The translations under genes and the position numbers were made by a program. 64,000 bases of DNA from Escherichia coli (GTDB lineage: Bacteria; Pseudomonadota; Gammaproteobacteria; Enterobacterales; Enterobacteriaceae). The stretch lies in the NCBI RefSeq assembly GCF_003790525.1, contig NZ_CP033635.1. One strand, 5' to 3'. The notes beneath the pieces were generated by a model. The model was not told where the DNA came from. It searched no databases and worked only from the letters and a program-made list of their open reading frames with translations. Below are positions 3,616 to 61,294 of the stretch, piece after piece (position 1 is the first letter of the stretch; every line of letters begins with the position of its first letter).

Positions 3616-4777
<1,162 letters not shown>

Positions 4778-4778
<1 letters not shown>

Positions 4779-5635
4779 TATTTCACCTCGCGGGAAAGTA
4801 GCTTCCACCAGGCGTCGATGGTCGGGTTTTTCGCCAGCATGACAAAGTCGATATCGCCATGCACTTTGCGCCAGCGCGCCGCCAGCGCCATCATCCGCAC
4901 CGAATCCAGACCGTAGTCGATCAGGTTGTCGTCATCGAACGGTTCATCGGACTCGTCCAGCAACGGCAGGATCACCTCACGCAGCGCCGCTTTGCTGGCG
5001 GGGATAGGTGCTGGCAGCAATTCTTCGGTCATCACCACCCGACCAGAACGTCCGGCCACATATTTCAGCGACATCAAATGCTCGTCACGGCTGAAATCGG
5101 CCAGCGCATCCGCCACCATAAACGGTTTAATATCGCGCATAAATGCGTCCGTTGCGGTGGTCATACAGCCAATGTGGGCATATACCCCGGTAATAATCAG
5201 CTGGTTACGTCCACTCTCTTTCAGCATTTGCTCCAGCGGGGAACGATGAAACGCGCTGTAGCGCCACTTCACCAACACCGTGTCGTCAGCATCTGGCGTC
5301 AGGCGATCCACCACCTTTTGCTGTTCCGGCGAACGGGTCAGGCCTGGCCCCCACATATCATTCAACAGCGCCCGATCTTCATCGCTCTGCTCTTTCGGCT
5401 GGGCGGTGTAATAAACCGGGATATTGTGCTGTTTGCAGTAGTCGCGTAGTGCCGCAATATTCGCGATCACCTGCTCCATCATCGGGCAGTTCTCACCCCA
5501 GAAGCTGACAAAATAGTCCTGCATATCATGGATTAACAACGCGGCACGTTGCGGTTCAAAGGCCCAGTCGACTTTATTCTGCGGAATATCGTGAGAATCC
5601 GGCAGTGCGTAAGCCTGTAATTTTGGAATAGCCAT
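4778..5635 (-). CDS. entB: Isochorismatase / aryl carrier protein
   Basis: 285-aa ORF; matches remembered EntB. Confidence 0.95.
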
Positions 5636-8632: not shown

Positions 8633-9589
8633 GTGAGACTCGCCCCGCTCTACCGCAACGCCCTTCTATTAACAGGACTTTTGCTTTCAGGAATAGTCGC
8701 AGTTCAGGCCGCCGACTGGCCGCGTCAGATTACTGACAGCCGGGGCACTCATACCCTGGAAAGCCAGCCGCAGCGTATTGTTTCCACCAGCGTCACCCTG
8801 ACTGGCTCACTGCTGGCGATTGATGCTCCGGTGATCGCCAGCGGCGCGACCACGCCGAATAACCGCGTCGCGGATGACCAGGGCTTTTTACGCCAGTGGA
8901 GCAAGGTGGCGAAAGAACGCAAACTGCAACGGCTCTATATCGGCGAACCGAGTGCAGAAGCCGTTGCCGCGCAAATGCCGGATCTGATTTTAATTAGCGC
9001 AACCGGCGGGGATTCGGCGCTGGCGCTGTACGATCAGCTTTCTACCATCGCCCCAACATTAATCATCAATTACGACGACAAAAGCTGGCAGTCGCTGTTA
9101 ACGCAGCTTGGCGAAATTACCGGGCATGAGAAACAAGCGGCAGAGCGGATTGCACAGTTTGATAAGCAACTGGCGGCGGCGAAAGAGCAAATCAAATTAC
9201 CGCCGCAGCCGGTCACTGCCATTGTCTATACCGCCGCTGCACACAGTGCCAATCTCTGGACGCCGGAATCAGCACAAGGGCAGATGCTGGAACAACTCGG
9301 CTTTACGTTGGCGAAATTGCCCGCAGGGTTAAACGCCAGCCAAAGCCAGGGCAAACGCCATGACATCATTCAGCTTGGTGGAGAAAATCTGGCTGCAGGG
9401 TTAAATGGCGAGTCACTATTCCTGTTCGCTGGTGATCAGAAAGATGCCGATGCGATTTATGCCAATCCACTGCTCGCGCACCTGCCCGCAGTACAAAACA
9501 AGCAGGTTTATGCGCTGGGAACCGAGACGTTCCGCCTGGATTACTACAGCGCCATGCAAGTGCTGGAACGACTTAAGGCGCTGTTTTAA
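8633..9589 (+). CDS. fepB: Periplasmic ferric-enterobactin binding protein
   Basis: 318-aa ORF with a signal peptide and apparent GTG start; matches remembered FepB. Confidence 0.92.
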
Positions 9590-9592
9590 GCA

Positions 9593-10843
9593 TTAACTGT
9601 CGGACGCTGTCATCTGCGGCGGCGTCTGGCGAAAACGTCGCAACTCCACCAGCACCAGCAATAACAACACGCCGATAATCAACAAACCAAAACCGCTCGC
9701 GCTTGCGGAAGCAACCGGTGTCATCATCGCGCCCAAACCGCCCAGCAGCGCTGCGCCTATGGCATCGCCCGTCACGTTTTGCGCCGTCCACAAACCGTTA
9801 ATCCGCCCTAACATCGCTTCCGGGGTTTGCGTTTGCAGCATTGTATATTGCAGCAACGAACTAACCGCGCTCAACCAACCGAACAGCGCCAGGCAAACCA
9901 CGCCTAAAATCCACATCGGCATCAGGCCAAACAGACCAATGGCAAGGAACGATCCCAGCGTGGAGAGCAGCATCAATAACCCTGGTCGCGCACTATGTGC
10001 CAGCTTCCCGCTGGTTAACGCGCCAATAGCCGCGCCGAGCGGAATCGCCGCATAGAGAAAACCAATCTGTGCCGCCGACATCTGCCAGTTGTCAGCCAGC
10101 GCCGGATACAGGACCCGCACCGCGCTCGCCATCGTCAATAAACCACCCAGCAACGCAATCCCTCCCACCAGCGGGCTGGCGAGTAGAAAACGAAATCCTG
10201 CCAGTAATGATTTCAACGGATGCTCACGCGGCTGCGGCGGTGGTGGCAACGCCGGAAGGCTTAACAACGGTAGCAAGGTAATAAACGTGCCCGCCGCCGC
10301 CAGTCCGTAGTTCCAGGCTACGCCTCCGGTCGCCAGCAATAAACCGCCAATCATGGGCGAAATCACCGATCCCAGACGCACGGTCAACATGGTGATCGCC
10401 CCGGCCTGCATTAAGTTTTCACGCCCTACCAGTGCAGGTGTCGCCGCCAGTAGCGCCGTAACGCCAAGCGATGCGAAAAAACCATCCCATAAACCAAGTA
10501 AATATATTGCCAGCAATGACGGCTCCGGCAGCAGCGCGTTCAGGCACAGTCCAATGAAGCCAATGCCACAGGTGCCGCGCGCCAGCAAAATCACTTTTTT
10601 GCGCTCATAGCGATCCGCCAGCACACCGCCGACCATCAAACCGACAAACATCGCCCCGCCGGTCAGCGTCACCGAAAGCCCCACCTGCCAGGTAGAATGC
10701 GTCATCATCTGGATCTGCACCGGCACCGCGACGCCGAGCAAACCCAGAGAAACAATAGAGATAAAACGAGCGAGGAATACTGCGCGAAACGCCGGGTGCG
10801 TTTTCAACAGGCTGAGGTTAAGCAGCCAGGATTGTTTATTCAT
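9593..10843 (-). CDS. entS: Enterobactin exporter (MFS)
   Basis: 416-aa polytopic membrane protein; matches remembered EntS (YbdA); convergent with fepB. Confidence 0.93.
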
Positions 10844-10941: not shown

Positions 10942-10953
10942 ATGGAAGTTCGT

Positions 10954-11958
10954 ATGTCTGGTTCTGTTGCCGTGACACGCGCCATTGCCGTGCCCGGATT
11001 GCTGTTATTACTGATTATCGCGACGGCATTAAGCCTGCTCATTGGAGCAAAATCACTCCCCGCTTCCGTAGTGCTGGAGGCCCTCTCCGGCACCTGCCAG
11101 AGCGCCGACTGCACCATCGTGCTCGACGCACGACTGCCGCGCACCCTTGCCGGTTTACTGGCAGGCGGTGCGCTTGGCCTTGCCGGGGCGTTAATGCAAA
11201 CCCTCACCCGAAACCCACTTGCCGATCCTGGTTTGCTTGGCGTGAACGCCGGTGCCAGTTTTGCCATTGTGCTGGGTGCGGCGCTGTTTGGTTACTCTTC
11301 CGCACAGGAACAACTGGCGATGGCCTTCGCCGGGGCGCTGGTGGCCTCGTTGATTGTTGCCTTTACCGGCAGCCAGGGCGGCGGGCAGTTAAGTCCGGTG
11401 CGTTTAACCCTGGCGGGCGTGGCGCTGGCGGCGGTGCTGGAAGGGCTGACCAGCGGCATCGCCCTGCTTAATCCTGACGTCTACGATCAACTGCGTTTCT
11501 GGCAAGCCGGTTCACTGGATATTCGTAATTTACACACCTTAAAAGTGGTGCTGATCCCGGTGCTGATCGCCGGAGCAACTGCGTTATTACTGAGCCGTGC
11601 ACTGAACAGTTTGAGCCTTGGCAGTGACACCGCGACGGCGCTGGGCAGCCGCGTGGCGCGCACACAGTTGATTGGTCTGCTGGCGATTACCGTGCTTTGT
11701 GGTAGTGCGACGGCGGTAGTTGGCCCGATTGCCTTTATTGGCCTGATGATGCCGCATATGGCGCGCTGGCTGGTAGGTGCCGATCATCGCTGGTCGCTGC
11801 CCGTCACGCTACTTGCCACCCCTGCCCTGCTGCTGTTTGCCGATATCATCGGGCGGGTGATTGTGCCCGGCGAGTTACGCGTTTCTGTGGTCAGTGCGTT
11901 TATTGGCGCACCGGTGCTGATCTTCCTCGTGCGACGTAAAACGCGAGGTGGCGCATGA
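10954..11958 (+). CDS. fepD: Ferric-enterobactin ABC transporter permease
   Basis: FecCD-family permease. Start taken at MSGSVAV (334 aa) as I recall the K-12 annotation; an in-frame ATG at 10942 (MEVRMSG) is the alternative. Confidence 0.9.
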   Translation: MSGSVAVTRAIAVPGLLLLLIIATALSLLIGAKSLPASVVLEALSGTCQSADCTIVLDARLPRTLAGLLAGGALGLAGALMQTLTRNPLADPGLLGVNAGASFAIVLGAALFGYSSAQEQLAMAFAGALVASLIVAFTGSQGGGQLSPVRLTLAGVALAAVLEGLTSGIALLNPDVYDQLRFWQAGSLDIRNLHTLKVVLIPVLIAGATALLLSRALNSLSLGSDTATALGSRVARTQLIGLLAITVLCGSATAVVGPIAFIGLMMPHMARWLVGADHRWSLPVTLLATPALLLFADIIGRVIVPGELRVSVVSAFIGAPVLIFLVRRKTRGGA

Positions 11959-12947
11959 TTTACGTCTCTCGCCGATTAATCATCACCTGTTTGCTGCTAA
12001 TTACCGCCTGTGTGGTTGCAGGTATCTGGGGATTACGCAGCGGTACCGTCACGCTGGAAACCTCGCAGGTATTCGCCGCGCTGATGGGCGATGCGCCGCG
12101 CAGTATGACGATGGTGGTCACTGAATGGCGTTTACCACGCGTGCTGATGGCGCTGTTAATTGGCGCGGCTCTGGGCGTCAGCGGCGCGATTTTTCAGTCG
12201 CTGATGCGTAACCCGCTCGGTAGCCCTGACGTAATGGGCTTTAACACCGGGGCGTGGAGCGGCGTGCTGGTGGCGATGGTGCTGTTTGGTCAGGACCTGA
12301 CGGCTATCGCGCTGGCAGCAATAGCGGGCGGCATTGTCACCTCGCTGCTGGTCTGGCTGCTTGCCTGGCGTAACGGTATCGACACCTTTCGGTTGATTAT
12401 TATTGGTATCGGCGTTCGCGCCATGCTGGTGGCCTTTAATACCTGGCTGTTGCTGAAAGCGTCTTTAGAAACGGCGCTAACAGCGGGTTTATGGAATGCC
12501 GGATCGCTCAACGGCCTGACGTGGGCAAAAACCTCGCCTTCCGCACCCATCATTATATTGATGCTAATTGCCGCCGCCTTACTGGTACGCCGGATGCGCT
12601 TGCTGGAAATGGGCGATGATACCGCGTGTGCGCTGGGCGTCAGCGTCGAACGTTCGCGGCTGTTAATGATGCTGGTCGCCGTAGTGCTTACCGCAGCTGC
12701 CACTGCCCTGGCGGGGCCGATTTCCTTTATTGCTTTAGTCGCGCCACACATTGCCCGCCGCATTAGCGGCACCGCTCGCTGGGGGCTGACCCAGGCGGCG
12801 CTGTGCGGGGCGTTGTTATTACTGGCGGCCGATCTCTGCGCCCAACAACTGTTTATGCCGTATCAACTTCCGGTTGGCGTCGTTACCGTCAGCCTCGGCG
12901 GTATTTACCTTATCGTCTTGTTAATTCAGGAGTCTCGCAAAAAATGA
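11955..12947 (+). CDS. fepG: Ferric-enterobactin ABC transporter permease
   Basis: 330-aa ORF; its ATG overlaps the fepD stop (ATGA). Confidence 0.93.
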   Translation: MIYVSRRLIITCLLLITACVVAGIWGLRSGTVTLETSQVFAALMGDAPRSMTMVVTEWRLPRVLMALLIGAALGVSGAIFQSLMRNPLGSPDVMGFNTGAWSGVLVAMVLFGQDLTAIALAAIAGGIVTSLLVWLLAWRNGIDTFRLIIIGIGVRAMLVAFNTWLLLKASLETALTAGLWNAGSLNGLTWAKTSPSAPIIILMLIAAALLVRRMRLLEMGDDTACALGVSVERSRLLMMLVAVVLTAAATALAGPISFIALVAPHIARRISGTARWGLTQAALCGALLLLAADLCAQQLFMPYQLPVGVVTVSLGGIYLIVLLIQESRKK

Positions 12948-13759
12948 CCGAATCAGTAGCCCGTTTGCGCGGCGAACAGTTAACCCTCGGATATGGCAAA
13001 TATACCGTTGCGGAGAATCTGACTGTAGAAATACCTGATGGTCACTTCACGGCAATTATCGGGCCAAATGGCTGCGGTAAATCCACTTTACTGCGTACTT
13101 TAAGCCGCCTGATGACGCCTGCTCACGGGCATGTCTGGCTGGATGGCGAGCACATTCAACATTACGCCAGTAAAGAAGTTGCCCGGCGGATTGGTCTGTT
13201 GGCGCAAAATGCTACCACGCCGGGCGATATCACCGTGCAGGAGCTGGTGGCGCGTGGGCGTTATCCGCATCAACCGCTGTTTACCCGCTGGCGGAAAGAA
13301 GATGAAGAGGCAGTCACAAAAGCGATGCAGGCCACGGGAATCACTCATCTGGCAGATCAAAGCGTGGATACCCTTTCTGGCGGACAACGCCAGCGAGCGT
13401 GGATAGCAATGGTGCTGGCCCAGGAAACGGCAATTATGCTGCTCGACGAACCCACGACCTGGCTGGATATCAGTCATCAGATTGATCTCCTGGAACTGTT
13501 AAGCGAACTGAACCGCGAGAAAGGCTATACCCTGGCGGCGGTGCTGCACGATCTTAATCAGGCCTGTCGTTACGCCAGCCATTTGATTGCATTGCGGGAA
13601 GGGAAAATTGTTGCTCAGGGAGCGCCGAAGGAGATTGTCACTGCTGAACTGATTGAGCGCATTTATGGTCTGCGCTGCATGATTATTGACGATCCGGTTG
13701 CCGGAACGCCGCTCGTGGTGCCGCTCGGACGAACGGCACCTTCAACTGCCAAGATTTAA
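12944..13759 (+). CDS. fepC: Ferric-enterobactin ABC transporter ATP-binding protein
   Basis: 271-aa protein starting MTESVARL with Walker A GPNGCGKST. The listed ORF carries a 47-codon upstream extension overlapping fepG, judged an artefact; the ATG overlaps the fepG stop (ATGA). Confidence 0.93.
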   Translation: MTESVARLRGEQLTLGYGKYTVAENLTVEIPDGHFTAIIGPNGCGKSTLLRTLSRLMTPAHGHVWLDGEHIQHYASKEVARRIGLLAQNATTPGDITVQELVARGRYPHQPLFTRWRKEDEEAVTKAMQATGITHLADQSVDTLSGGQRQRAWIAMVLAQETAIMLLDEPTTWLDISHQIDLLELLSELNREKGYTLAAVLHDLNQACRYASHLIALREGKIVAQGAPKEIVTAELIERIYGLRCMIIDDPVAGTPLVVPLGRTAPSTAKI

Positions 13760-14889
13760 ACTAAGTGCTCTTCCATCACGGCATCCTGTTTTCTGGATGC
13801 CATCGCATGGCGCAACAGCACGCCACCACAAGCCACCATCCCGCCGATCATCGCAGAAAGGATCACAATAATCGCCTTACCCGGACCGTCTTTTTTCACT
13901 GGCAATGACGGGCTTAACTGATATTTAAACGGCGTAAAATTCACATCGTTGATATTTGCTTTTGTTAGCTGCTCAACAAGATACTGACGATTACGTAATT
14001 CACCGTTCAATTCCGCAACGTCAGTAACCGCTTTTTCAATTTCCAGTTTGCGTTCAATACCGTCTGCGCCGAGAGAAATAGAGAAATCGGGGTCATCTTT
14101 AACGGCCTGACCATTACTGTAAACGGGCTTTTTAATTCCTGCCGCGTTGGCAATGTCGAGTGAATAATTGAGGCGCTGAATGTTTGCATCAAGTTGATTT
14201 TTCGTTTTAATGCGATCCTGAGCCAGTTTTTCTTTTTCAAACTGGGTTTTGATCTCCAGTTTATTACGGACGTTTTCTATCGACTCTTTCACCACCAACG
14301 CAGATATATAATCGATATACCCGCTCAAAACGGTCTGCGCCTCTTCACTGGTTGGCGCGGTAAAACTTTGCGTCCAGGAGGTATACAGTGACGGTTCATC
14401 TTTTTTCTTACTGGCATTGTCATCAACCGCTTTCATTTTTTCGCTCAATGCGACGATAGCTCGATGCAAATCCAGTTCGTCGATTTTCGCCTCTTTTAAT
14501 TGGTCCATCACATAAGGTGATGAACGCAGGTACTCTTCCAGCAAGCTAACCGACTGAAACTTCTTGATAAACAGGTTAAATGCTTCTGTACGATCAATTT
14601 TGATATCCAGATCCAGCACACGAAGCTTAGTGAATGTTTTCTCCAGTTCTTGCCACTGAACAGGTTCTGGAGGCGTGACAACCGCCGCGCTGGTCCATTT
14701 TTGCGGCAGGATGAAAGAGATCAGCAATCCTGCGCAGGCAAACGCAAAAATGACCGCCATGACCGTTTTTTTTGCCCGCCATAAAACTTCGATTAGATTA
14801 AGTAAATCAATTTCATTATTACTGGGCGACGCCAGAGGATACTCGGGAAAATGAGCGTCACTTCCCTGTTTAATATTCAGTGATGACAT
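13756..14889 (-). CDS. fepE: Polysaccharide co-polymerase (Wzz family) FepE
   Basis: 377-aa protein starting MSSLNIKQ, 17 codons inside the listed ORF; stop codon overlaps the fepC stop on the opposite strand. Confidence 0.9.
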   Translation of the reverse strand: MSSLNIKQGSDAHFPEYPLASPSNNEIDLLNLIEVLWRAKKTVMAVIFAFACAGLLISFILPQKWTSAAVVTPPEPVQWQELEKTFTKLRVLDLDIKIDRTEAFNLFIKKFQSVSLLEEYLRSSPYVMDQLKEAKIDELDLHRAIVALSEKMKAVDDNASKKKDEPSLYTSWTQSFTAPTSEEAQTVLSGYIDYISALVVKESIENVRNKLEIKTQFEKEKLAQDRIKTKNQLDANIQRLNYSLDIANAAGIKKPVYSNGQAVKDDPDFSISLGADGIERKLEIEKAVTDVAELNGELRNRQYLVEQLTKANINDVNFTPFKYQLSPSLPVKKDGPGKAIIVILSAMIGGMVACGGVLLRHAMASRKQDAVMEEHLV

Positions 14890-15103
14890 GGGGTATAACC
14901 TGAAATGGGTCCAATAAGAGTAAATCTCCACGGCGCTCACTTTACCAGTTGGTGAGAATTATCCGAAGCTGAAGTTTGTAAATTCCTTCCACTGAATGCA
15001 ACATTCACTCTATTTAAGAGAAATATCCACCAAACTTATAAATTAAATAAATGATAAACCCATAATTATTTCCTGTAATTATGGGTTTATAGATAATATT
15101 AAT

Positions 15104-18100: not shown

Positions 18101-18985
18101 CGGCAAAACGTTGAGCACGGGTCCGGTAGCCGTCAGCGCCGCCGAGCCCAGTCGACGCATAAAGATAAATCCGGCAGCGTAGTCCATGCGGTTGCACAAT
18201 CGCCCCAGCCACAAAGCTGCCAACGCAAGGGCTAAATCGGTACGCTGCACACCTGAAAGTTGCGTAGCCAGCTGGCGGAATTCCCCGTCGGTAAATTCCA
18301 GTTTCAGGCGCAAAATATCTGCCGAAGCGCTGCGCCACGGTAAAGGTGCCGGAGAAAGTGACGCGGGCGGTGGCAGTTGACGACGCTGTTCCGCCCAGAA
18401 TGCCGCATCACGCTGCCAGGCTTCACTTTCGCGGTACTGCTGATACTCTTCCACTACATCAGCGAAAGGCGTAAACGGCGAAGCAGGCGTTGGTTCGCCA
18501 CGCAGCCATGCGCAGTAAATATTGGCGATCTGGCGTGTAATGGCCGGGAAACTGAAGCCATCGACCAGCAAATGGTGATAACGCTGATACCAGTACCAGC
18601 GGTTATCCGCCACCTGTATCAGCTGATGAAAGACCAGTGGTTTACCACTATCGACGCGCAGATCTTGTTGCAAATCCGCCTGCATTAATGCCCGCGCAGT
18701 ACCGTGCGGATCAATGTTGGTTCGCAGGTCGATAATTTCTGGCAGTTCGAACGTCTGCGCATCATCGACCCACTGCCAGACTTCGCCGTTATCTTCCGTA
18801 AAACGCATCCGCAACGTATCTGCTTGCGCTAGTCCGGCAACCACCGCGCGGGCCAGTAGTGGCGCATCAACCTCTCCGGTTAACTCAACGTAATGCGCCA
18901 CGCTCCAGGCGGAGGGTAAATCCGACAGTTTTTCTGCCATCCAGATGCCGGGCTGTGCGGCGACCAAAGGTAAATGCTGGCTCAT
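15104..18985 (-). CDS. entF: Enterobactin synthase component F (NRPS: C-A-PCP-TE, serine-activating)
   Basis: 1293-aa protein starting MSQHLPLVAAQPGIWMAEKL; condensation, adenylation, PCP (GGHSLLA) and thioesterase (GYSLGG) motifs visible. The listed ORF has a 46-codon upstream extension overlapping ybdZ. Confidence 0.95.
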   Translation of the reverse strand: MSQHLPLVAAQPGIWMAEKLSDLPSAWSVAHYVELTGEVDAPLLARAVVAGLAQADTLRMRFTEDNGEVWQWVDDAQTFELPEIIDLRTNIDPHGTARALMQADLQQDLRVDSGKPLVFHQLIQVADNRWYWYQRYHHLLVDGFSFPAITRQIANIYCAWLRGEPTPASPFTPFADVVEEYQQYRESEAWQRDAAFWAEQRRQLPPPASLSPAPLPWRSASADILRLKLEFTDGEFRQLATQLSGVQRTDLALALAALWLGRLCNRMDYAAGFIFMRRLGSAALTATGPVLNVLPLGIHIAAQETLPQLATRLAAQLKKMRRHQRYDAEQIVRDSGRAAGEEPLFGPVLNIKVFDYQLDIPGVQAQTHTLATGPVNDLELALFPDEHGDLSIEIIANKQRYAEPTLIQHAERLKMLIAQFAADPSLLCGDVDIMLPGEYAQLAQINATQVEIPETTLSALVAEQAAKTPDAPALVDARYQFSYREMREQVVALANLLRERGVKPGDSVAVALPRSVFLTLALHAIVEAGAAWLPLDTGYPDDRLKMMLEDARPSLLITTDDQLPRFADVPDLTRLCYNAPLTPQGSAPLQLSQPHHTAYIIFTSGSTGRPKGVMVGQTAIVNRLLWMQNHYPLTGEDVVAQKTPCSFDVSVWEFFWPFIAGAKLVMAEPEAHRDPLAMQHFFADYGVTTTHFVPSMLAAFVASLTPQTARQSCATLKQVFCSGEALPADLCREWQQLTGAPLHNLYGPTEAAVDVSWYPAFGEELAEVRGSSVPIGYPVWNTGLRILDAMMHPVPPGVAGDLYLTGIQLAQGYLGRPDLTASRFIADPFAPGERMYRTGDVARWLDNGAVEYLGRSDDQLKIRGQRIELGEIDRVMQALPDVEQAVTHACVINQAAATGGDARQLVGYLVSQSGLPLDTSALQAQLRETLPPHMVPVVLLQLPQLPLSANGKLDRKALPLPELKAQAPGRAPKAGSETIIAAAFSSLLGCDVQDADADFFALGGHSLLAMKLAAQLSRQFARQVTPGQVMVASTVAKLATIIDGEEDSSRRMGFETILPLREGNGPTLFCFHPASGFAWQFSVLSRYLDPQWSIIGIQSPRPNGPMQTAANLDEVCEAHLATLLEHQPHGPYYLLGYSLGGTLAQGIAARLRARGEQVAFLGLLDTWPPETQNWQEKEANGLDPEVLAEINREREAFLAAQQGSTSTELFTTIEGNYADAVRLLTTAHSVPFEGKATLFVAERTLQEGMNPERAWSPWITELDIYRQDCAHVDIISPGAFEKIGPIIRATLNR

Positions 18986-23683: not shown

Positions 23684-23794
23684 TTGACAATATCTGGTAC
23701 GATTCGCCCGCAGCCATCACTGACCACGGGCGAAAGTGTAAAGCAGGTGCCTTACCATCCTGACCTGACAACCGGATATGCGGGGATTGCTCCC

Positions 23795-25130
23795 ATAAGC
23801 GCTAACTTAAGGGTTGTGGTATTACGCCTGATATGATTTAACGTGCCGATGAATTACTCTCACGATAACTGGTCAGCAATTCTGGCCCATATTGGTAAGC
23901 CCGAAGAACTGGATACTTCGGCACGTAATGCCGGGGCTCTAACCCGCCGCCGCGAAATTCGTGATGCTGCAACTCTGCTACGTCTGGGGCTGGCTTACGG
24001 CCCCGGGGGATGTCATTACGTGAAGTCACTGCATGGGCTCAGCTCCATGACGTTGCAACATTATCTGACGTGGCTCTCCTGAAGCGGCTGCGGAATGCCG
24101 CCGACTGGTTTGGCATACTTGCCGCACAAACACTTGCTGTACGCGCCGCAGTTACGGGTTGTACAAGCGGAAAGAGATTGCGTCTTGTCGATGGAACAGC
24201 AATCAGTGCGCCCGGGGGCGGCAGCGCTGAATGGCGACTACATATGGGATATGATCCTCATACCTGTCAGTTCACTGATTTTGAGCTAACCGACAGCAGA
24301 GACGCTGAACGGCTGGACCGATTTGCGCAAACGGCAGACGAGATACGCATTGCTGACCGGGGATTCGGTTCGCGTCCCGAATGTATCCGCTCACTTGCTT
24401 TTGGAGAAGCTGATTATATCGTCCGGGTTCACTGGCGAGGATTGCGCTGGTTAACTGCAGAAGGAATGCGCTTTGACATGATGGGTTTTCTGCGCGGGCT
24501 GGATTGCGGTAAGAACGGTGAAACCACTGTAATGATAGGCAATTCAGGTAATAAAAAAGCCGGAGCTCCCTTTCCGGCACGTCTCATTGCCGTATCACTT
24601 CCTCCCGAAAAAGCATTAATCAGTAAAACCCGACTGCTCAGCGAGAATCGTCGAAAAGGACGAGTAGTTCAGGCGGAAACGCTGGAAGCAGCGGGCCATG
24701 TGCTATTGCTAACATCATTACCGGAAGATGAATATTCAGCAGAGCAAGTGGCTGATTGTTACCGTCTGCGATGGCAAATTGAACTGGCTTTTAAGCGGCT
24801 CAAAAGTTTGCTGCACCTGGATGCTTTGCGTGCAAAGGAACCTGAACTCGCGAAAGCGTGGATATTTGCTAATCTACTCGCCGCATTTTTAATTGACGAC
24901 ATAATCCAGCCATCGCTGGATTTCCCCCCCAGAAGTGCCGGATCCGAAAAGAAGAACTAACTCGTTGTGGAGAATAACAAAAATGGTCATCTGGAGCTTA
25001 CAGGTGGCCATTCGTGGGACAGTATCCCTGACAGCCTACAAAACGCAATTGAAGAACGCGAGGCATCGTCTTAACGAGGCACCGAGGCGTCGCATTCTTC
25101 AGATGGTTCAACCCTTAAGTTAGCGCTTAT
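23795..25130 (+). mobile_element. Insertion sequence IS186 (IS4 family)
   Basis: Perfect 22-bp terminal inverted repeats (ATAAGCGCTAACTTAAGGGTTG at 23795-23816; reverse complement at 25109-25130), flanked by a 12-bp direct repeat GGGATTGCTCCC (23783-23794 and 25131-25142). Exact ends are ambiguous by 1 bp because the target is palindromic. Confidence 0.9.
23849..24960 (+). pseudogene. insL: IS186 transposase InsL, interrupted by an apparent 1-bp frameshift at a G5 run
   Basis: An N-terminal frame (MNYSHDNW..LAYGPGG, stop at 24080-24082) and a C-terminal frame (MSLREVTAWAQ.., 24010..24960) overlap and switch frame at GGGGG 24005-24009. Together they reconstitute a single IS4-type transposase of about 370 aa. 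Confidence 0.7.
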
Positions 25131-25152
25131 GGGATTGCTCCCCGCACAACGG

Positions 25153-37548: not shown

Positions 37549-38232
37549 ATGAAACTGTTGATTGTCGAAGATGAAAAGAAAACCGGAGAATACTTGACCA
37601 AAGGGTTAACCGAAGCCGGTTTTGTGGTCGATTTGGCCGACAACGGGCTGAATGGCTACCATCTGGCGATGACCGGTGATTATGATCTGATAATCCTCGA
37701 TATTATGCTGCCGGACGTGAACGGCTGGGATATCGTGCGCATGTTGCGTTCCGCCAATAAGGGGATGCCGATTCTGTTGCTTACCGCGCTTGGCACCATT
37801 GAACATCGCGTCAAGGGGCTGGAGTTGGGGGCGGATGACTATCTGGTTAAGCCGTTCGCTTTTGCTGAACTGCTGGCGCGGGTGCGCACTCTACTGCGGC
37901 GCGGGGCGGCGGTGATTATCGAAAGTCAGTTTCAGGTTGCCGATCTGATGGTCGATCTCGTCAGCCGCAAAGTCACCCGTAGCGGCACGCGCATCACGTT
38001 GACCAGTAAAGAATTTACTTTGCTGGAGTTTTTCCTCCGCCATCAGGGTGAAGTGCTGCCCCGCTCGCTTATCGCCTCGCAGGTGTGGGACATGAATTTC
38101 GACAGCGACACTAACGCCATTGATGTGGCGGTGAAGCGGCTACGCGGCAAAATCGACAACGACTTTGAGCCGAAGCTGATTCAGACCGTGCGCGGCGTGG
38201 GCTATATGCTTGAGGTGCCGGATGGTCAGTAA
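37549..38232 (+). CDS. cusR: Copper-responsive two-component response regulator (OmpR family)
   Basis: 227-aa [28 protein letters not shown]; recognised as CusR. Confidence 0.95.
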
Positions 38233-39813: not shown

Positions 39814-42051
39814 GTGGACTGGCTTCTTGATGTTTTTGCTACCTGGCTCTACGGCTTAAAAGTAATCGCGATAACGTTAGCGGTCATCATGTTCATCAGC
39901 GGGCTGGACGATTTTTTTATTGATGTCGTCTACTGGGTACGCCGCATTAAACGCAAGTTGAGTGTTTATCGCCGCTACCCGCGAATGAGTTACCGCGAAC
40001 TGTATAAACCAGATGAAAAACCGTTAGCGATTATGGTTCCGGCGTGGAATGAAACGGGCGTCATCGGCAATATGGCCGAGCTGGCGGCGACCACGCTCGA
40101 CTACGAAAACTATCATATCTTTGTTGGCACCTACCCCAACGACCCCGATACTCAGCGTGATGTTGACGAAGTGTGCGCTCGCTTCCCGAACGTGCATAAG
40201 GTAGTCTGCGCGCGTCCTGGCCCCACCAGCAAAGCCGACTGTCTGAACAACGTGCTGGACGCCATCACCCAATTTGAACGTAGCGCCAATTTCGCTTTTG
40301 CTGGTTTTATTCTGCATGACGCCGAAGATGTGATTTCACCGATGGAATTGCGTCTGTTCAACTATCTGGTCGAGCGTAAAGATCTGATTCAGATCCCAGT
40401 GTATCCGTTCGAACGCGAATGGACGCACTTCACCAGCATGACTTACATTGATGAGTTTTCAGAACTGCATGGCAAAGATGTTCCGGTGCGTGAAGCCCTC
40501 GCCGGACAGGTGCCCAGCGCAGGCGTCGGCACCTGTTTCAGCCGCCGCGCCGTGACCGCTCTGTTAGCTGACGGTGACGGTATTGCTTTCGACGTGCAGA
40601 GTCTGACTGAAGATTACGATATTGGCTTCCGCCTGAAAGAAAAAGGTATGACGGAAATTTTTGTCCGTTTTCCGGTGGTGGACGAAGCCAAAGAACGCGA
40701 GCAGCGTAAATTTTTACAGCACGCACGGACGTCAAACATGATCTGCGTGCGCGAATATTTCCCCGATACCTTTTCGACTGCGGTTCGACAAAAATCTCGC
40801 TGGATCATCGGCATTGTTTTCCAGGGCTTTAAAACCCACAAATGGACCTCCAGCCTGACGCTGAACTACTTTCTCTGGCGCGACCGCAAAGGGGCAATCA
40901 GTAACTTTGTCAGCTTCCTCGCGATGCTGGTGATGATCCAGCTTTTGCTGTTACTGGCGTATGAAAGTTTGTGGCCCGATGCCTGGCATTTCCTTTCTAT
41001 TTTCAGCGGCAGCGCATGGTTAATGACCCTGCTGTGGCTAAACTTTGGTTTGATGGTTAACCGCATCGTGCAGCGGGTGATTTTTGTCACTGGCTACTAC
41101 GGTCTGACGCAGGGGCTGCTATCTGTCCTGCGTCTTTTCTGGGGTAACCTGATTAACTTCATGGCCAACTGGCGCGCGTTAAAACAGGTACTTCAACACG
41201 GCGATCCGCGTCGAGTGGCGTGGGATAAAACAACGCATGACTTCCCCAGCGTGACTGGCGATACCCGCTCGTTGCGCCCGTTAGGTCAAATCCTGCTGGA
41301 AAATCAGGTCATCACTGAAGAACAACTCGATACAGCACTGCGTAATCGCGTCGAAGGTCTACGCCTGGGCGGTTCAATGCTGATGCAGGGGCTGATTAGC
41401 GCCGAGCAACTGGCACAGGCGCTGGCAGAGCAAAACGGCGTGGCGTGGGAATCCATCGATGCCTGGCAGATCCCTTCCTCGCTGATTGCCGAAATGCCGG
41501 CCTCCGTGGCGCTGCATTATGCGGTACTGCCGCTGCGTCTGGACAATGATGAGTTAATTGTCGGCAGTGAAGATGGTATTGACCCGGTTTCGCTGGCGGC
41601 CCTGACGCGTAAAGTCGGACGCAAAGTGCGTTACGTCATTGTTCTGCGGGGACAAATTGTCACCGGATTACGCCACTGGTATGCACGCCGACGCGGTCAC
41701 GATCCGCGGGCAATGTTGTACAATGCAGTTCAGCATCAGTGGCTCACGGAACAGCAGGCCGGTGAAATCTGGCGGCAATATGTGCCGCATCAGTTCCTGT
41801 TCGCCGAAATACTGACCACGCTCGGTCATATTAATCGTTCAGCAATTAACGTGTTGTTATTGCGCCATGAACGCAGTTCTCTGCCGCTCGGCAAGTTTTT
41901 GGTCACCGAAGGCGTTATCAGCCAGGAAACGTTGGATCGCGTCCTGACAATTCAACGCGAATTACAAGTTTCGATGCAATCACTATTACTCAAAGCAGGT
42001 TTAAACACAGAAAAGGTTGCGCAACTGGAGTCCGAAAATGAAGGAGAATAA
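39814..42051 (+). CDS. nfrB: Inner-membrane glycosyltransferase NfrB (phage N4 adsorption protein B; c-di-GMP-binding)
   Basis: 745-aa ORF with a GTG start, an N-terminal membrane/GT2 region and a C-terminal soluble domain; matches remembered NfrB. Confidence 0.93.
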   Translation: MDWLLDVFATWLYGLKVIAITLAVIMFISGLDDFFIDVVYWVRRIKRKLSVYRRYPRMSYRELYKPDEKPLAIMVPAWNETGVIGNMAELAATTLDYENYHIFVGTYPNDPDTQRDVDEVCARFPNVHKVVCARPGPTSKADCLNNVLDAITQFERSANFAFAGFILHDAEDVISPMELRLFNYLVERKDLIQIPVYPFEREWTHFTSMTYIDEFSELHGKDVPVREALAGQVPSAGVGTCFSRRAVTALLADGDGIAFDVQSLTEDYDIGFRLKEKGMTEIFVRFPVVDEAKEREQRKFLQHARTSNMICVREYFPDTFSTAVRQKSRWIIGIVFQGFKTHKWTSSLTLNYFLWRDRKGAISNFVSFLAMLVMIQLLLLLAYESLWPDAWHFLSIFSGSAWLMTLLWLNFGLMVNRIVQRVIFVTGYYGLTQGLLSVLRLFWGNLINFMANWRALKQVLQHGDPRRVAWDKTTHDFPSVTGDTRSLRPLGQILLENQVITEEQLDTALRNRVEGLRLGGSMLMQGLISAEQLAQALAEQNGVAWESIDAWQIPSSLIAEMPASVALHYAVLPLRLDNDELIVGSEDGIDPVSLAALTRKVGRKVRYVIVLRGQIVTGLRHWYARRRGHDPRAMLYNAVQHQWLTEQQAGEIWRQYVPHQFLFAEILTTLGHINRSAINVLLLRHERSSLPLGKFLVTEGVISQETLDRVLTIQRELQVSMQSLLLKAGLNTEKVAQLESENEGE

Positions 42052-58594: not shown

Positions 58595-59104
58595 ATGTCT
58601 TCCCGCAATAATCCGGCGCGTGTCGCCATCGTGATGGGGTCCAAAAGCGACTGGGCTACCATGCAGTTCGCCGCCGAAATCTTCGAAATCCTGAATGTCC
58701 CGCACCACGTTGAAGTGGTTTCTGCTCACCGCACCCCCGACAAACTGTTCAGCTTCGCCGAAAGCGCCGAAGAAAACGGTTATCAGGTGATTATTGCGGG
58801 CGCAGGCGGCGCGGCGCACCTGCCAGGTATGATTGCCGCCAAAACGCTGGTGCCGGTGCTGGGCGTGCCAGTACAGAGCGCCGCACTGAGCGGTGTCGAT
58901 AGTCTCTACTCCATCGTACAAATGCCGCGCGGCATTCCGGTGGGTACGCTGGCGATTGGTAAAGCTGGCGCGGCAAACGCGGCGTTACTGGCAGCACAAA
59001 TTCTTGCGACTCATGATAAAGAACTGCACCAGCGTCTGAATGACTGGCGCAAAGCCCAGACTGACGAAGTGCTGGAAAACCCGGACCCGCGAGGTGCGGC
59101 ATGA
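58595..59104 (+). CDS. purE: N5-carboxyaminoimidazole ribonucleotide mutase
   Basis: 169-aa protein starting [20 protein letters not shown], with AGGAG upstream; the listed ORF has a 9-codon extension. Confidence 0.95.
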
Positions 59105-60168: not shown

Positions 60169-60185
60169 TTGATGCTCATTTTCTT

Positions 60186-60370
60186 GCCGCATGCGGCGTG
60201 AACGCCTTATCCGGCCTACCGTTCCAACACCGACTGTAGGCCTGATAAGATGCGCCAGCATCGCATCAGGCATGGTGTGCCGATTGCCGGATGCGGCGTG
60301 AACGCCTTATCCGGCCTACCGTTCCGACACCGCCTGTAGACCTGATAAGACGCGCCAGCATCGCATCAGG
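60186..60370. repeat. BIME: four REP palindromes in alternating orientation downstream of purK
   Basis: REP units at about 60186-60219, 60235-60270, 60286-60319 and 60335-60370, i.e. an approximately 100-bp unit repeated twice (GCCGGATGCGGCGTGAACGCCTTATCCGGCCTAC and GTAGGCCTGATAAG..CATCAGGC). Confidence 0.75.
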
Positions 60371-60400
60371 CTAGATGTGCCAATTGCCTGGTGCCCATCA

Positions 60401-61294
60401 CTACAGCGAAATACAGGTCCCCGCTTCGCCCGCCAGCGTCTCTTCAATTCGCGATAACGCCCCAATCCACGCGGGTTTACCACGGCTTCTGACATAGCCA
60501 CTCACTGCCGTTACCTTCGGCCCCATCGAACCATCGGCTTTGGCAAGTGGCGCTAACTCATCCGGTGTGGCATGGCGAATGGCACGTTGCTGCGGCGTTC
60601 CCCAGTTTTCATATACCGCATCAGCATCGGTGAGGATCACCAGTCCATCGGCATTAATCTGCTCGGCGAGCAACGCAGCGGCGAGATCTTTATCAATCAC
60701 TGCTTCACTCCCTACTCCGTCATCCGTCACAGGCACACCGCCGCCGCCACTGCAAATCACCACATGCCCCTCTTTGAGCAACAACTCGATGGCTTCGCTG
60801 TCGAGAATATTACGCGGTTGCGGAGACGCCACCACCCGGCGCAAATATTTACCATCACGTTTCATCTGCCAGCCGTAAGCAGCTTCCAGTGCCTCTTGTT
60901 CTTCTGGCTGATAAACCGGACCGATAAACTTCTCTGGCTGCAAAAACGCCGGATCATCAGGCGAAACCTCAATGCGCGTCAGCACCGTCGTGACAGGCGG
61001 CATCTGCGGCTGTGCGCTCAAGCTCTGCACCAGCATATAGCCAATCATCCCCTGGCTTTCCGCCACCAGCACATCCAGCGGATACGGTTCTACCTCTTTC
61101 CACGCCAGATTCTGTAACGCCAACAGCCCCACCTGTGGCCCGTTGCCGTGAACAATCGCCAGCCGATAAGAACGGGCCAGGCGCGCCAGCGCGGGTACAG
61201 CACTGGCAATATTGCGATATTGATTTTCTGCCGTCAGCGCCTCACCGCGCTGGAGTAAGGCGTTGCCCCCAAGAGCCACAACCAGTGTTTTCAT
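60401..61294 (-). CDS. ybcF: Carbamate kinase-like protein (ArcC family)
   Basis: 297-aa protein starting [18 protein letters not shown] (amino-acid kinase fold); the listed ORF has a 38-codon extension overlapping ylbF. Confidence 0.88.

Follow-up and report, generated by a model that had tools for sequence, protein, structure and literature searches.

Overlaps of 4 nt and 1 nt are the modal spacing between operon genes in bacteria. Among native E. coli pairs with −4 spacing, four of the five examined by Huber et al. (2019, PMC6728339), namely hyfHI, astDB, ydbH/ynbE, as well as menDH, are coupled by termination-reinitiation, usually in a Shine-Dalgarno-dependent manner, while bioBF is translated by de novo initiation with no coupling. 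Heteromeric complexes are 4.5-fold enriched among gene pairs at short distance (PMC10666635). For convergent genes, 58 overlaps have been described in E. coli, among which a TTAA-like 4-nt class is recognised, and few of the genes have intrinsic terminators (Lillo & Krakauer 2007, PMC2174442). At Rho-dependent 3′ ends, a stable stem-loop that lacks a U tract directly precedes the end, and the rut site follows immediately downstream (Dar & Sorek 2018, PMC6061677).

The fepDGC and fepE genes of the E. coli window analysed here (the whole stretch of DNA, 64,000 nt) can be compared with each of these systems. The fep overlaps have the NTGA geometry of the coupled −4 pairs of PMC6728339, and in both cases the Shine-Dalgarno motif lies in the upstream gene and the genes form one operon encoding subunits of one complex. 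Unlike in those pairs, the coupling of fepD, fepG, and fepC is predicted, and no conserved structure was detected over the fepG or fepC ribosome-binding site, the alifold energies being about −4 kcal/mol. The convergent pair falls in the 4-nt class of PMC2174442 (CTAA, TTAA, CTAG, and TTAG), since its TTAA likewise ends both genes and leaves no room for an intergenic terminator. Its origin, in which a stop codon disappeared and the reading frame became longer, fits the stop-mutation model of that work, but here the ancestral state can still be seen, in sister genera and in five E. coli genomes. On both strands, a stem-loop soon after the stop codon, the absence of a U tract, and a C-rich, G-poor tract next to it recall the Rho-dependent ends of PMC6061677, with the difference that the candidate stem-loops of fepC/fepE lie within the opposing gene's coding sequence. 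Finally, bidirectional intrinsic terminators, such as those in the ybcI/cysS spacer of the window and in the fepC/fepE spacers of Salmonella arizonae L026 and E. coli NCTC9967, have the same position and job. The fepC/fepE allele of the window, in contrast, lacks a spacer, a shared hairpin, and any A-tract or T-tract, and two separate hairpins take the place of the single shared one.

The fep overlaps as such are nothing new, being of an ordinary, textbook kind and already present in the K-12 annotation. The mildly new point concerns Escherichia, where the spacer that carried a terminator between fepC and fepE has been lost and two conserved RNA hairpins are kept within the coding sequences instead. 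On balance, we favor a model that combines termination-reinitiation coupling along fepDGC, a derived TTAA overlap, and Rho-dependent ends at the two hairpins.

Overlapping genes in the window

Gene coordinates were transferred to the window from the RefSeq annotation of SMS-3-5, a near-identical genome, and the letters were also read directly (Table 1). An IS insertion that is missing from SMS-3-5 shifts the coordinates by +1348 beyond position 23794. The fepD, fepG, and fepC genes, which lie on one strand with no gaps between them, encode a type II ABC importer, consisting of two FecCD-family permeases (Pfam PF01032, E = 1e-92 and 5e-87) and an ABC ATPase (ABC_tran, PF00005, E = 1e-34). They form one operon, listed as Fur-regulated (PMC4145685), for the import of ferric enterobactin, with genes for both permease subunits of the importer and for its ATPase. 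The product of fepE, for which the RefSeq name is wzz(fepE), has a Wzz chain-length determinant domain (PF02706, E = 9e-20).

The ATGA overlaps of fepD/fepG, fepG/fepC, purE/purK, and ylbF/ybcF, and the TAATG of entB/entA, pairs that the earlier note had listed, are all present and agree with RefSeq. The list was incomplete, however, as ybdZ/entF, cusR/cusS (−11), and nrfB/nfrA (−14) had been left out. Exact −4 spacing is found in 5 of the 23 close co-directional pairs of the window (P = 7e-5 under a uniform spacing model).

Table 1. Positions of the genes, overlaps, motifs, and hairpins within the window
Feature	Position	Strand	Basis
fepD CDS, FecCD-family permease, 334 aa	10954..11958	+	RefSeq mapping; Pfam FecCD residues 19-328
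fepG CDS, FecCD-family permease, 330 aa	11955..12947	+	RefSeq mapping, Pfam
fepC CDS, ABC ATPase, 271 aa	12944..13759	+	RefSeq mapping, Pfam
fepE / wzz(fepE) CDS, O-antigen chain-length regulator, 377 aa	13756..14889	-	RefSeq mapping; Pfam Wzz
ATGA, fepG start over fepD stop (-4 overlap)	11955..11958	+	sequence, RefSeq mapping
ATGA, fepC start over fepG stop (-4 overlap)	12944..12947	+	sequence, RefSeq mapping
TAATG, entB stop / entA start, 1-nt overlap, base 4778 common	4776..4780	-	RefSeq mapping
ATGA, ybdZ stop / entF start (-4 overlap)	18982..18985	-	RefSeq mapping; AGGAGG 4 nt before ATG
ATGA, purE stop / purK start	59101..59104	+	RefSeq mapping
ATGA, ylbF stop / ybcF start	61291..61294	-	RefSeq mapping
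Shine-Dalgarno GAGGTGG for fepG, within fepD 3′ end, 6 nt before ATG	11945..11951	+	
Shine-Dalgarno AGGAG for fepC, within fepG 3′ end, 11 nt before ATG	12928..12932	+	
TTAA, fepC stop TAA (13757-13759, +) over fepE stop (TTA on +, 13756-13758, -)	13756..13759		sequence, RefSeq mapping
Hairpin A (GGTGCCGCTC GGAC GAACGGCACC), inside fepC 3′ end	13717..13740		
Hairpin B (GGCATCC TGTTTTCT GGATGCC), inside fepE 3′ end	13780..13801		
C-rich, G-poor tract past hairpin A, candidate rut site	13578..13675	- (fepE sense)	
C-rich, G-poor tract past hairpin B, candidate rut site	13800..13897	+ (fepDGC sense)	
15-bp A/U-rich hairpin and T-rich tail directly after entF stop, upstream of fepE, terminator-like	15054..15090	-	

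The overlaps would be annotation artefacts if the start codons were mis-assigned, for example if fepC began at another Met, which we find scarcely credible. Other upstream codons do exist, namely a single in-frame GTG for fepC at 12803, which is 47 codons away and constitutes the longest-ORF start, and an ATG for fepD at 10942, four codons upstream, but the latter has no bearing on any overlap. The ATG of fepG is its 5′-most possible start in the window, an in-frame stop being located six codons upstream, and in 19 of 78 species an in-frame stop precedes the fepC ATG by 2–6 codons. The next Met downstream in FepC comes after the Walker A motif, as read from the sequence, and the Pfam domains start at residues 19–24. 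In addition, the N of the NTGA at the end of fepD is A, G, or T, but never C, across 80 species. The assigned starts thus hold, mis-assignment in the fep genes being ruled out by the upstream stops and the Pfam domain onsets, with the NTGA pattern in agreement.

Conservation of the −4 spacing and probable translational coupling

The −4 overlap of fepD and fepG is kept in 77 of 79 Enterobacteriaceae species, the start codon turning over among ATG, GTG, and TTG, and that of fepG and fepC in 78 of 80. Scattered spacings, of −7 and −11, are seen in only two loci. The C-terminus of FepD, the N-terminus of FepG, and the identity of the start codon all change while the spacing persists. That the geometry is deeply conserved although both protein ends turn over in sequence points to selection acting on the overlap, for which translational coupling of the subunits of one transporter is the most plausible cause. 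In this mechanism, a ribosome ending on fepD or fepG would reinitiate, or be handed over, at the overlapping start, which would link the synthesis of the subunits of the complex. De novo initiation at the embedded Shine-Dalgarno motifs may add to the translation of fepG and fepC. These motifs are well conserved, the GGAGG-like motif of fepG being kept across 78 loci and the AGGAG of fepC reaching 95% conservation or more in 74 distinct loci. A Shine-Dalgarno core is found 5–12 nt upstream at all six overlap junctions, compared to 5% of background 14-nt windows.

By analogy with the E. coli pairs, coupling in fepDGC is likely. The earlier wording, according to which the compact architecture implies coupled translation, is too strong, because bioBF is uncoupled and each fep gene has a Shine-Dalgarno motif of its own. 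A literature search on translational coupling of fepG and fepC returned zero matches.

We have also considered an alternative in which the overlaps are functionally neutral or just a matter of compactness. In it, translation of fepG and fepC would start mostly by independent initiation at the strong Shine-Dalgarno motif that each of them has, and the −4 spacing would persist only because a shift would harm both genes. The presence of such a motif at every junction and the precedent of bioBF (PMC6728339) speak for it, as does the alifold result, because an occluding structure over the ribosome-binding site is the proposed block on de novo initiation and its absence leaves room for independent initiation of fepG and fepC. 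We nevertheless consider this alternative doubtful, although it is the most serious of those discussed here. Neutral drift should scatter the spacings, whereas −4 is found in about 97% of 80 species. Coupling was found, moreover, in four of the five E. coli −4 pairs tested, and FepD, FepG, and FepC form one complex, a class that is enriched for such overlaps (PMC10666635). Translational coupling is retained as the preferred reading.

Origin of the fepC/fepE overlap and the embedded hairpins

The overlap of the fepC and fepE stop codons on opposite strands, as proposed in the earlier note, is confirmed by the sequence and the RefSeq mapping. The coding sequences overlap by 4 nt, and the two stop codons have 2 nt in common. 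The same 4-nt overlap is annotated in K-12 (619384–619387), and four further E. coli annotations show it as well. This overlap-type arrangement is Escherichia-specific and is present in 5407 of 5426 complete E. coli genomes, while a spacer with a GC hairpin is found in five E. coli genomes and in all non-Escherichia loci in which fepE is adjacent to fepC. The spacers are 30–54 nt (or longer) and contain a clear bidirectional terminator in several cases. A hairpin followed by a U tract is seen in several spacer-type alleles (e.g., L004, L026, and NCTC9967), and some Citrobacter spacer hairpins have no clear U tract. The spacer allele of the five complete E. coli genomes is of the NCTC9967 type, which is distinct from L004; the L004 allele itself had no match when sought in E. 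coli genomes. The proteins differ accordingly in length: the last ~7 residues of FepC (TAPSTAKI) are an Escherichia-specific tail, while FepC of the spacer-type relatives ends with ...PLGRNK and the stop codon at about 264–266 aa.

As the spacer-type state is still visible in the sister genera and in five E. coli genomes, the direction of the change can be read. Escherichia carries the derived TTAA state, in which the ancestral spacer and its hairpin terminator were lost. With the spacer gone, the fepC frame was extended to the palindromic TTAA, which also terminates fepE.

Hairpin A is the first stable stem-loop on the − strand, 16 nt past the fepE stop, and hairpin B the first on the + strand, 21 nt past the fepC stop. 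Both appear in the MFE and centroid folds, with ΔG of −18 to −19.6 for A (on the − strand) and about −12 to −14 for B, and neither is followed by a U tract. In an alignment of nine Escherichia sequences, hairpin A has no variable sites (0/24), and hairpin B has one (1/22), which is located in the loop. At third codon positions, the variable sites are 0/8 in hairpin A against 35/65 in its flanks (p = 0.0036) and 0/8 in hairpin B against 40/64 (p = 0.0009); this comparison was made after the alignment had been viewed, and the p-values overstate independence because the nine sequences are phylogenetically related. A clean hairpin B is found in overlap-type alleles only.

Ends of the convergent transcripts and source of the fepE mRNA

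The earlier note had proposed convergent transcription with no intervening terminator at fepC/fepE. This is right for an intergenic terminator, which is absent, but the lack of any termination signal is probably wrong, considering the conserved stem-loops and the C-rich tracts inside the opposing coding sequences. A terminator consensus scan of positions 13400–14300 gave no hairpin with a U tract on either strand, the nearest matches being weak ones within fepG (about 12884–12917) and one at 14672. The C-rich tract past hairpin B has a C/G ratio of 2.2–2.5 in 78-nt windows on the + strand (99th percentile of the window), and the one past hairpin A a ratio of 1.9–2.0 on the − strand (about the 97th percentile). 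The glycine-rich coding of the C-terminal helix of FepE also accounts for the + strand tract.

We infer from these features that Rho-dependent termination probably ends each of the two convergent transcripts in the antisense region of its neighbor. The stem-loop just past the footprint of the terminating ribosome, i.e., hairpin B in the case of fepDGC and hairpin A in that of fepE, would shield the 3′ end of the transcript, and the C-rich tract beyond it would load Rho. Untranslated antisense RNA is Rho's classical substrate.

Two other ways of ending these transcripts were considered. Hairpins A and B could act as weak intrinsic, Rho-independent terminators within the coding sequences, in line with their GC-rich stems (ΔG −12 to −19.6) and with the intrinsic terminators predicted inside the neighbor for about 20% of E. 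coli convergent-overlap genes (PMC2174442). This is quite improbable, as the U tract is missing after both hairpins on both strands and neither of them is called by the consensus scan. Alternatively, there might be no dedicated device, the two transcripts reading far into each other and their ends being set by head-on RNA polymerase collision and by RNase III/exonuclease processing of the double-stranded RNA, with the hairpins conserved for other reasons. Overlapping complementary 3′ ends, with a mean of 286 nt, are indeed made by 276 of the 370 convergent operons of E. coli (PMC4161252), and polymerase collisions have been proposed in a preprint as a driver of bidirectional termination (bioRxiv 10.1101/2022.10.23.513370). 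We judge this scenario unlikely, because the invariance of the hairpins at synonymous sites and their place just outside the footprint of the terminating ribosome call for a constraint at the RNA or DNA level. The C-rich tracts downstream of the hairpins, at the 97th–99th percentile, as well as the nature of the antisense RNA as a substrate, also argue for the Rho-dependent reading.

Published Term-seq tables (Adams et al. 2021, PMC7815308) contain no fepC, fepE, or fepG 3′ ends and none at the 3′ side of any fep/ent operon, the only ends being leader or 5′-proximal ones, at fepD and upstream of fepB. Expression of these genes is poor in the media used, where they are Fur-repressed, and the absence is for that reason uninformative rather than negative.

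The fepC/fepE locus offers a clean pair of natural alleles in one species, overlap-type and spacer-type with a terminator, together with two stem-loops in coding sequence that are constrained at synonymous sites. It is therefore a convenient test case for the termination of convergent genes that have no intergenic space. As a long shot, which we rate even below the intrinsic-terminator option, the loss of the terminator in Escherichia may have tied the transcription of iron uptake to O-antigen length control, through mutual antisense read-through of fepDGC and fepE. In that event, the strong, Fur-derepressed transcription of fepDGC under iron starvation would continue into fepE in antisense direction, and transcription from fepE would reach into fepC. 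The FepE level, and hence the modal length of the very long O-antigen, would then be shifted by colliding polymerases or by antisense RNA, and the two embedded hairpins would set the extent to which the transcripts invade each other.

Finally, it is doubtful that fepE mRNA comes mainly from an entF-fepE transcript. A separate fepE promoter, repressed by H-NS, has been described in EHEC (PMC8669466), and in inactivated serum fes-ybdZ-entF is induced while fepE is not co-induced (PMC4145685). In the window, the terminator scan finds the hairpin that follows entF, with a ΔG of −16.2.

Overlapping Genes and Start Codons

Of 5426 complete E. coli genomes, 5417 match the 4.1 kb around the fep overlaps, and the match to E. 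coli SMS-3-5 is essentially perfect. The window is the reverse complement of NC_010498.1 570253-634252 from this strain, the two differing by 3 substitutions and one 1.35 kb insertion (~23795-25130). The RefSeq annotation of SMS-3-5 was carried over to window coordinates, and the transferred coding sequences all have proper start and stop codons and no internal stops.

Coordinates of the fep genes, gene overlaps, hairpins and C-rich tracts in the window
Feature	Position	Strand	Remark
fepD	10954-11958	+	RefSeq transfer
fepG	11955-12947	+	RefSeq transfer
fepC	12944-13759	+	RefSeq transfer
fepE/wzz(fepE)	13756-14889	-	RefSeq transfer
fepD/fepG	11955-11958		ATGA
fepG/fepC	12944-12947		ATGA
fepC/fepE	13756-13759		TTAA, stops overlap
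entB/entA	4778 (shared base)		TAATG
ybdZ/entF	18982-18985		ATGA
cusR/cusS	38222-38232		co-directional, 11 nt
nrfB/nfrA	42038-42051		co-directional, 14 nt
purE/purK	59101-59104		ATGA
ylbF/ybcF	61291-61294	-	ATGA
Hairpin A	13717-13740		in fepC 3' end; right arm in Escherichia-specific tail
Hairpin B	13780-13801		in fepE 3' end
C-rich tract past A	13675-13578	-	C/G 1.9-2.0, ~97th percentile
C-rich tract past B	13800-13897	+	C/G 2.2-2.5, 99th percentile of all 78-nt windows
entF-fepE hairpin	15054-15090	-	15 bp, dG -16

Read directly, the sequence bears out the overlaps described in the earlier note, with ATGA at fepD/fepG (...GGCGC-ATGA-TTTAC...) and at fepG/fepC (...AAAAA-ATGA-CCGAA...), and with fepC ending in the TAA at 13757-13759 and fepE in the complement of the TTA at 13756-13758. 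The latter overlap is also found in the annotations of K-12 and four other E. coli. The overlaps it listed at entB/entA, purE/purK and ylbF/ybcF are likewise present, and those at ybdZ/entF, cusR/cusS and nrfB/nfrA can be added to them. At nfrA/ybcH the genes abut with zero spacing as TAAATG.

The start codons, whose mis-assignment the earlier note had considered, are sound because of the upstream stops, the position of the next Met of FepC and the domain starts. The fepG frame of the window is closed by a stop 6 codons before the ATG and offers no other start. The sole upstream alternative for fepC is a GTG 47 codons away, and in 19 of 78 species the frame is interrupted by a stop 2-6 codons ahead of the shared ATG; the next Met, as read from the sequence, falls past the Walker A motif. 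The Pfam domains (FecCD in FepD and FepG, ABC_tran in FepC) start at residues 19-24. An in-frame ATG at 10942, 4 codons upstream of the RefSeq start of fepD (MEVRMSGS...), is a candidate alternative start, which affects none of the overlaps.

Conservation of the ATGA Junctions and Probable Translational Coupling

The fep overlaps are an ordinary feature and already annotated, overlaps of 4 nt (-4, general form NTGA) and -1 being much more frequent than any other spacing of unidirectional pairs, a well-described genome-wide pattern. Among the 38 co-directional neighbor pairs of the window, 23 have spacings from -20 to +30 nt, five of them being exactly -4 (P = 7e-5 under uniform spacing). All six overlap junctions carry a GGAG, GAGG or AGGA core 5-12 nt before the start, a core present in only 5% of the 14-nt windows of this sequence. 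Subunits of heteromeric complexes are 4.5-fold overrepresented among E. coli pairs with spacings of -8 to +10 (PMC10666635), and the two permeases FepD and FepG with the ATPase FepC are products of this kind.

The junctions were placed by tblastn and frame extension in 80 Enterobacteriaceae loci, one per species (FepG 75-99% identical). The spacing is -4 in 77 of 79 loci at fepD/fepG and in 78 of 80 at fepG/fepC, the exceptions being two related loci with -7 and -11, and the Shine-Dalgarno motifs of both junctions are conserved. The fepD/fepG start shifts among ATG, GTG and TTG with the geometry unchanged, N of NTGA being A in 47 loci, G in 29, T in 4 and C in none, as predicted by selection for a start codon exactly there.

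By analogy with other -4 pairs, a ribosome terminating on the upstream gene would probably reinitiate at the overlapping start, aided by the Shine-Dalgarno motif embedded in the upstream gene. Such termination-reinitiation was reported by Huber et al. for four of five native E. coli -4 pairs, bioBF being the one without coupling (PMC6728339). Alifold (~-4 kcal/mol) gave no conserved RNA structure that would hide the ribosome-binding site of fepG or fepC, and the unpaired probability of these sites equals the regional mean, so de novo initiation may contribute as well. A literature search returned no paper with a coupling experiment on fepDGC. We infer, on good grounds, that fepDGC is likely to be translationally coupled; the overlaps alone, from which the earlier note drew this conclusion, do not imply it.

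Origin of the fepC/fepE Overlap and Probable Termination Signals

Of the 80 loci, only 26 have fepE as the convergent neighbor of fepC, and the 4-nt overlap of the two was seen only in Escherichia (the window, K-12, E. albertii, E. whittamii and one Escherichia sp.). All other genera have a spacer, typically of 30-54 nt and longer in some loci, which contains a GC-rich hairpin. In several loci this has a run of A on one side and of T on the other and so forms a bidirectional intrinsic terminator, e.g., AAAAAGCCGGATA-atcgc-TATCCGGCTTTTT in Salmonella arizonae. Some Citrobacter hairpins have no clear U tract. The overlap-type junction is found in 5407 of the 5426 complete E. coli genomes. A divergent fepE allele occurs in five (NCTC9967, H5, H6, LD93-1 and MSB1_9D), with a FepC of 266 aa, a 35-nt spacer and an intrinsic terminator (hairpin then T7 on the fepE strand). 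As seen in the NCTC9967 locus (2560-2800), the change from the common allele to this one occurs right at the 3' end of fepC. Strain SCPM-O-B-8794 carries a different spacer-type allele, found in none of the complete E. coli genomes.

The fepE stop is homologous in both allele types, and the fepC end differs: the spacer-type FepC ends in ...PLGRNK(I)*, and that of Escherichia has a variable tail up to TTAA (TAPSTAKI in the window, TAPSTANS in K-12). The overlap is therefore the derived state, the terminator spacer having been lost and fepC now running to the first stop in its frame. This stop is provided by the palindromic TTAA, as in the described TTAA/CTAA/CTAG/TTAG class of convergent overlaps (PMC2174442).

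The earlier note held that fepC and fepE converge without an intervening terminator. This is correct for the intergenic region, and no hairpin with a U tract was found within several hundred nt of the junction on either strand, but the coding sequences themselves probably contain termination signals. A clean stem-loop is present on either side of the TTAA. Hairpin A begins 16 nt past the fepE stop on the fepE transcript (dG -18 to -19.6), and hairpin B 21 nt past the fepC stop on the fepDGC transcript (dG ~-12 to -14), both being present in the MFE and centroid folds. A terminating ribosome covers ~12-15 nt, and each hairpin would thus start just beyond its footprint. Both are followed by C-rich, G-poor tracts, that on the + strand being also explained by the glycine codons of the FepE C-terminal helix. 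This architecture matches that of the E. coli Rho-dependent 3' ends described by Dar and Sorek, with stable stem-loops lacking a U-rich sequence and rut sites directly downstream (PMC6061677).

In an alignment of nine Escherichia sequences (447 columns, 114 variable), hairpin A has no variable site out of 24 and hairpin B one out of 22, in the loop, the most variable part being the stretch between them, with a 6-nt indel. No third codon position varies in either, 0/8 vs 35/65 outside for A (p = 0.0036) and 0/8 vs 40/64 for B (p = 0.0009), in a test made after the alignment had been seen and on sequences related to one another. A clean hairpin B is found only in overlap-type alleles, spacer-type loci having mostly weak, irregular structures there. 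The addition is small and within known kinds, namely an Escherichia-specific swap of one shared terminator hairpin for two constrained coding-embedded stem-loops.

Transcripts and Other Compact Junctions

For fepC, fepE and fepG, the Term-seq tables of Adams et al. 2021 (PMC7815308) give no 3' end, which is uninformative because Fur represses the three genes in the media employed. Some mutual read-through is to be expected anyway, since 276 of 370 convergent E. coli operons gave overlapping complementary 3' ends (Conway et al., PMC4161252). The tables contain very abundant Rho-independent 3' ends 37 nt into the fepD ORF (~10991, +; K-12 622152) and 170 nt upstream of the fepB ORF (~8463, +; K-12 624680), which point to short leader or 5'-proximal RNAs from the two Fur-regulated promoters.

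It is doubtful that an entF-fepE transcript, as assumed in the earlier note, is the main fepE mRNA. The A/U-rich hairpin and T-rich tail directly after the entF stop are likely a terminator or attenuator, which speaks for fepE being transcribed mostly from a promoter of its own; an H-NS-repressed fepE promoter is documented in EHEC (PMC8669466), and inactivated serum induced fes, ybdZ and entF but not fepE (PMC4145685). The CFT073 Fur regulon, however, includes fepE (PMC7157518).

In three other convergent pairs the genes lie too close for an intergenic terminator: fepB/entS (stops separated by 3 nt, 9587-9595), with a long GC stem just beyond the fepB stop within entS, fimZ/sfmF (2 nt, 47839-47846) and hcxA/ybdD (9 nt, 1008-1022). 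The 232-bp convergent spacer of purK/ybcF contains two ~105-bp direct repeats, 91% identical (60184-60388), which carry REP/BIME-like palindromes.

The insertion missing from the otherwise near-identical SMS-3-5 is an IS4-family (IS186-like) element of 1336 bp (23795-25130) adjoining hokE. It has terminal inverted repeats of ~23 bp, a 316-aa transposase ORF (24010-24960) and a 12-bp target duplication, GGGATTGCTCCC, at 23783-23794 and 25131-25142.
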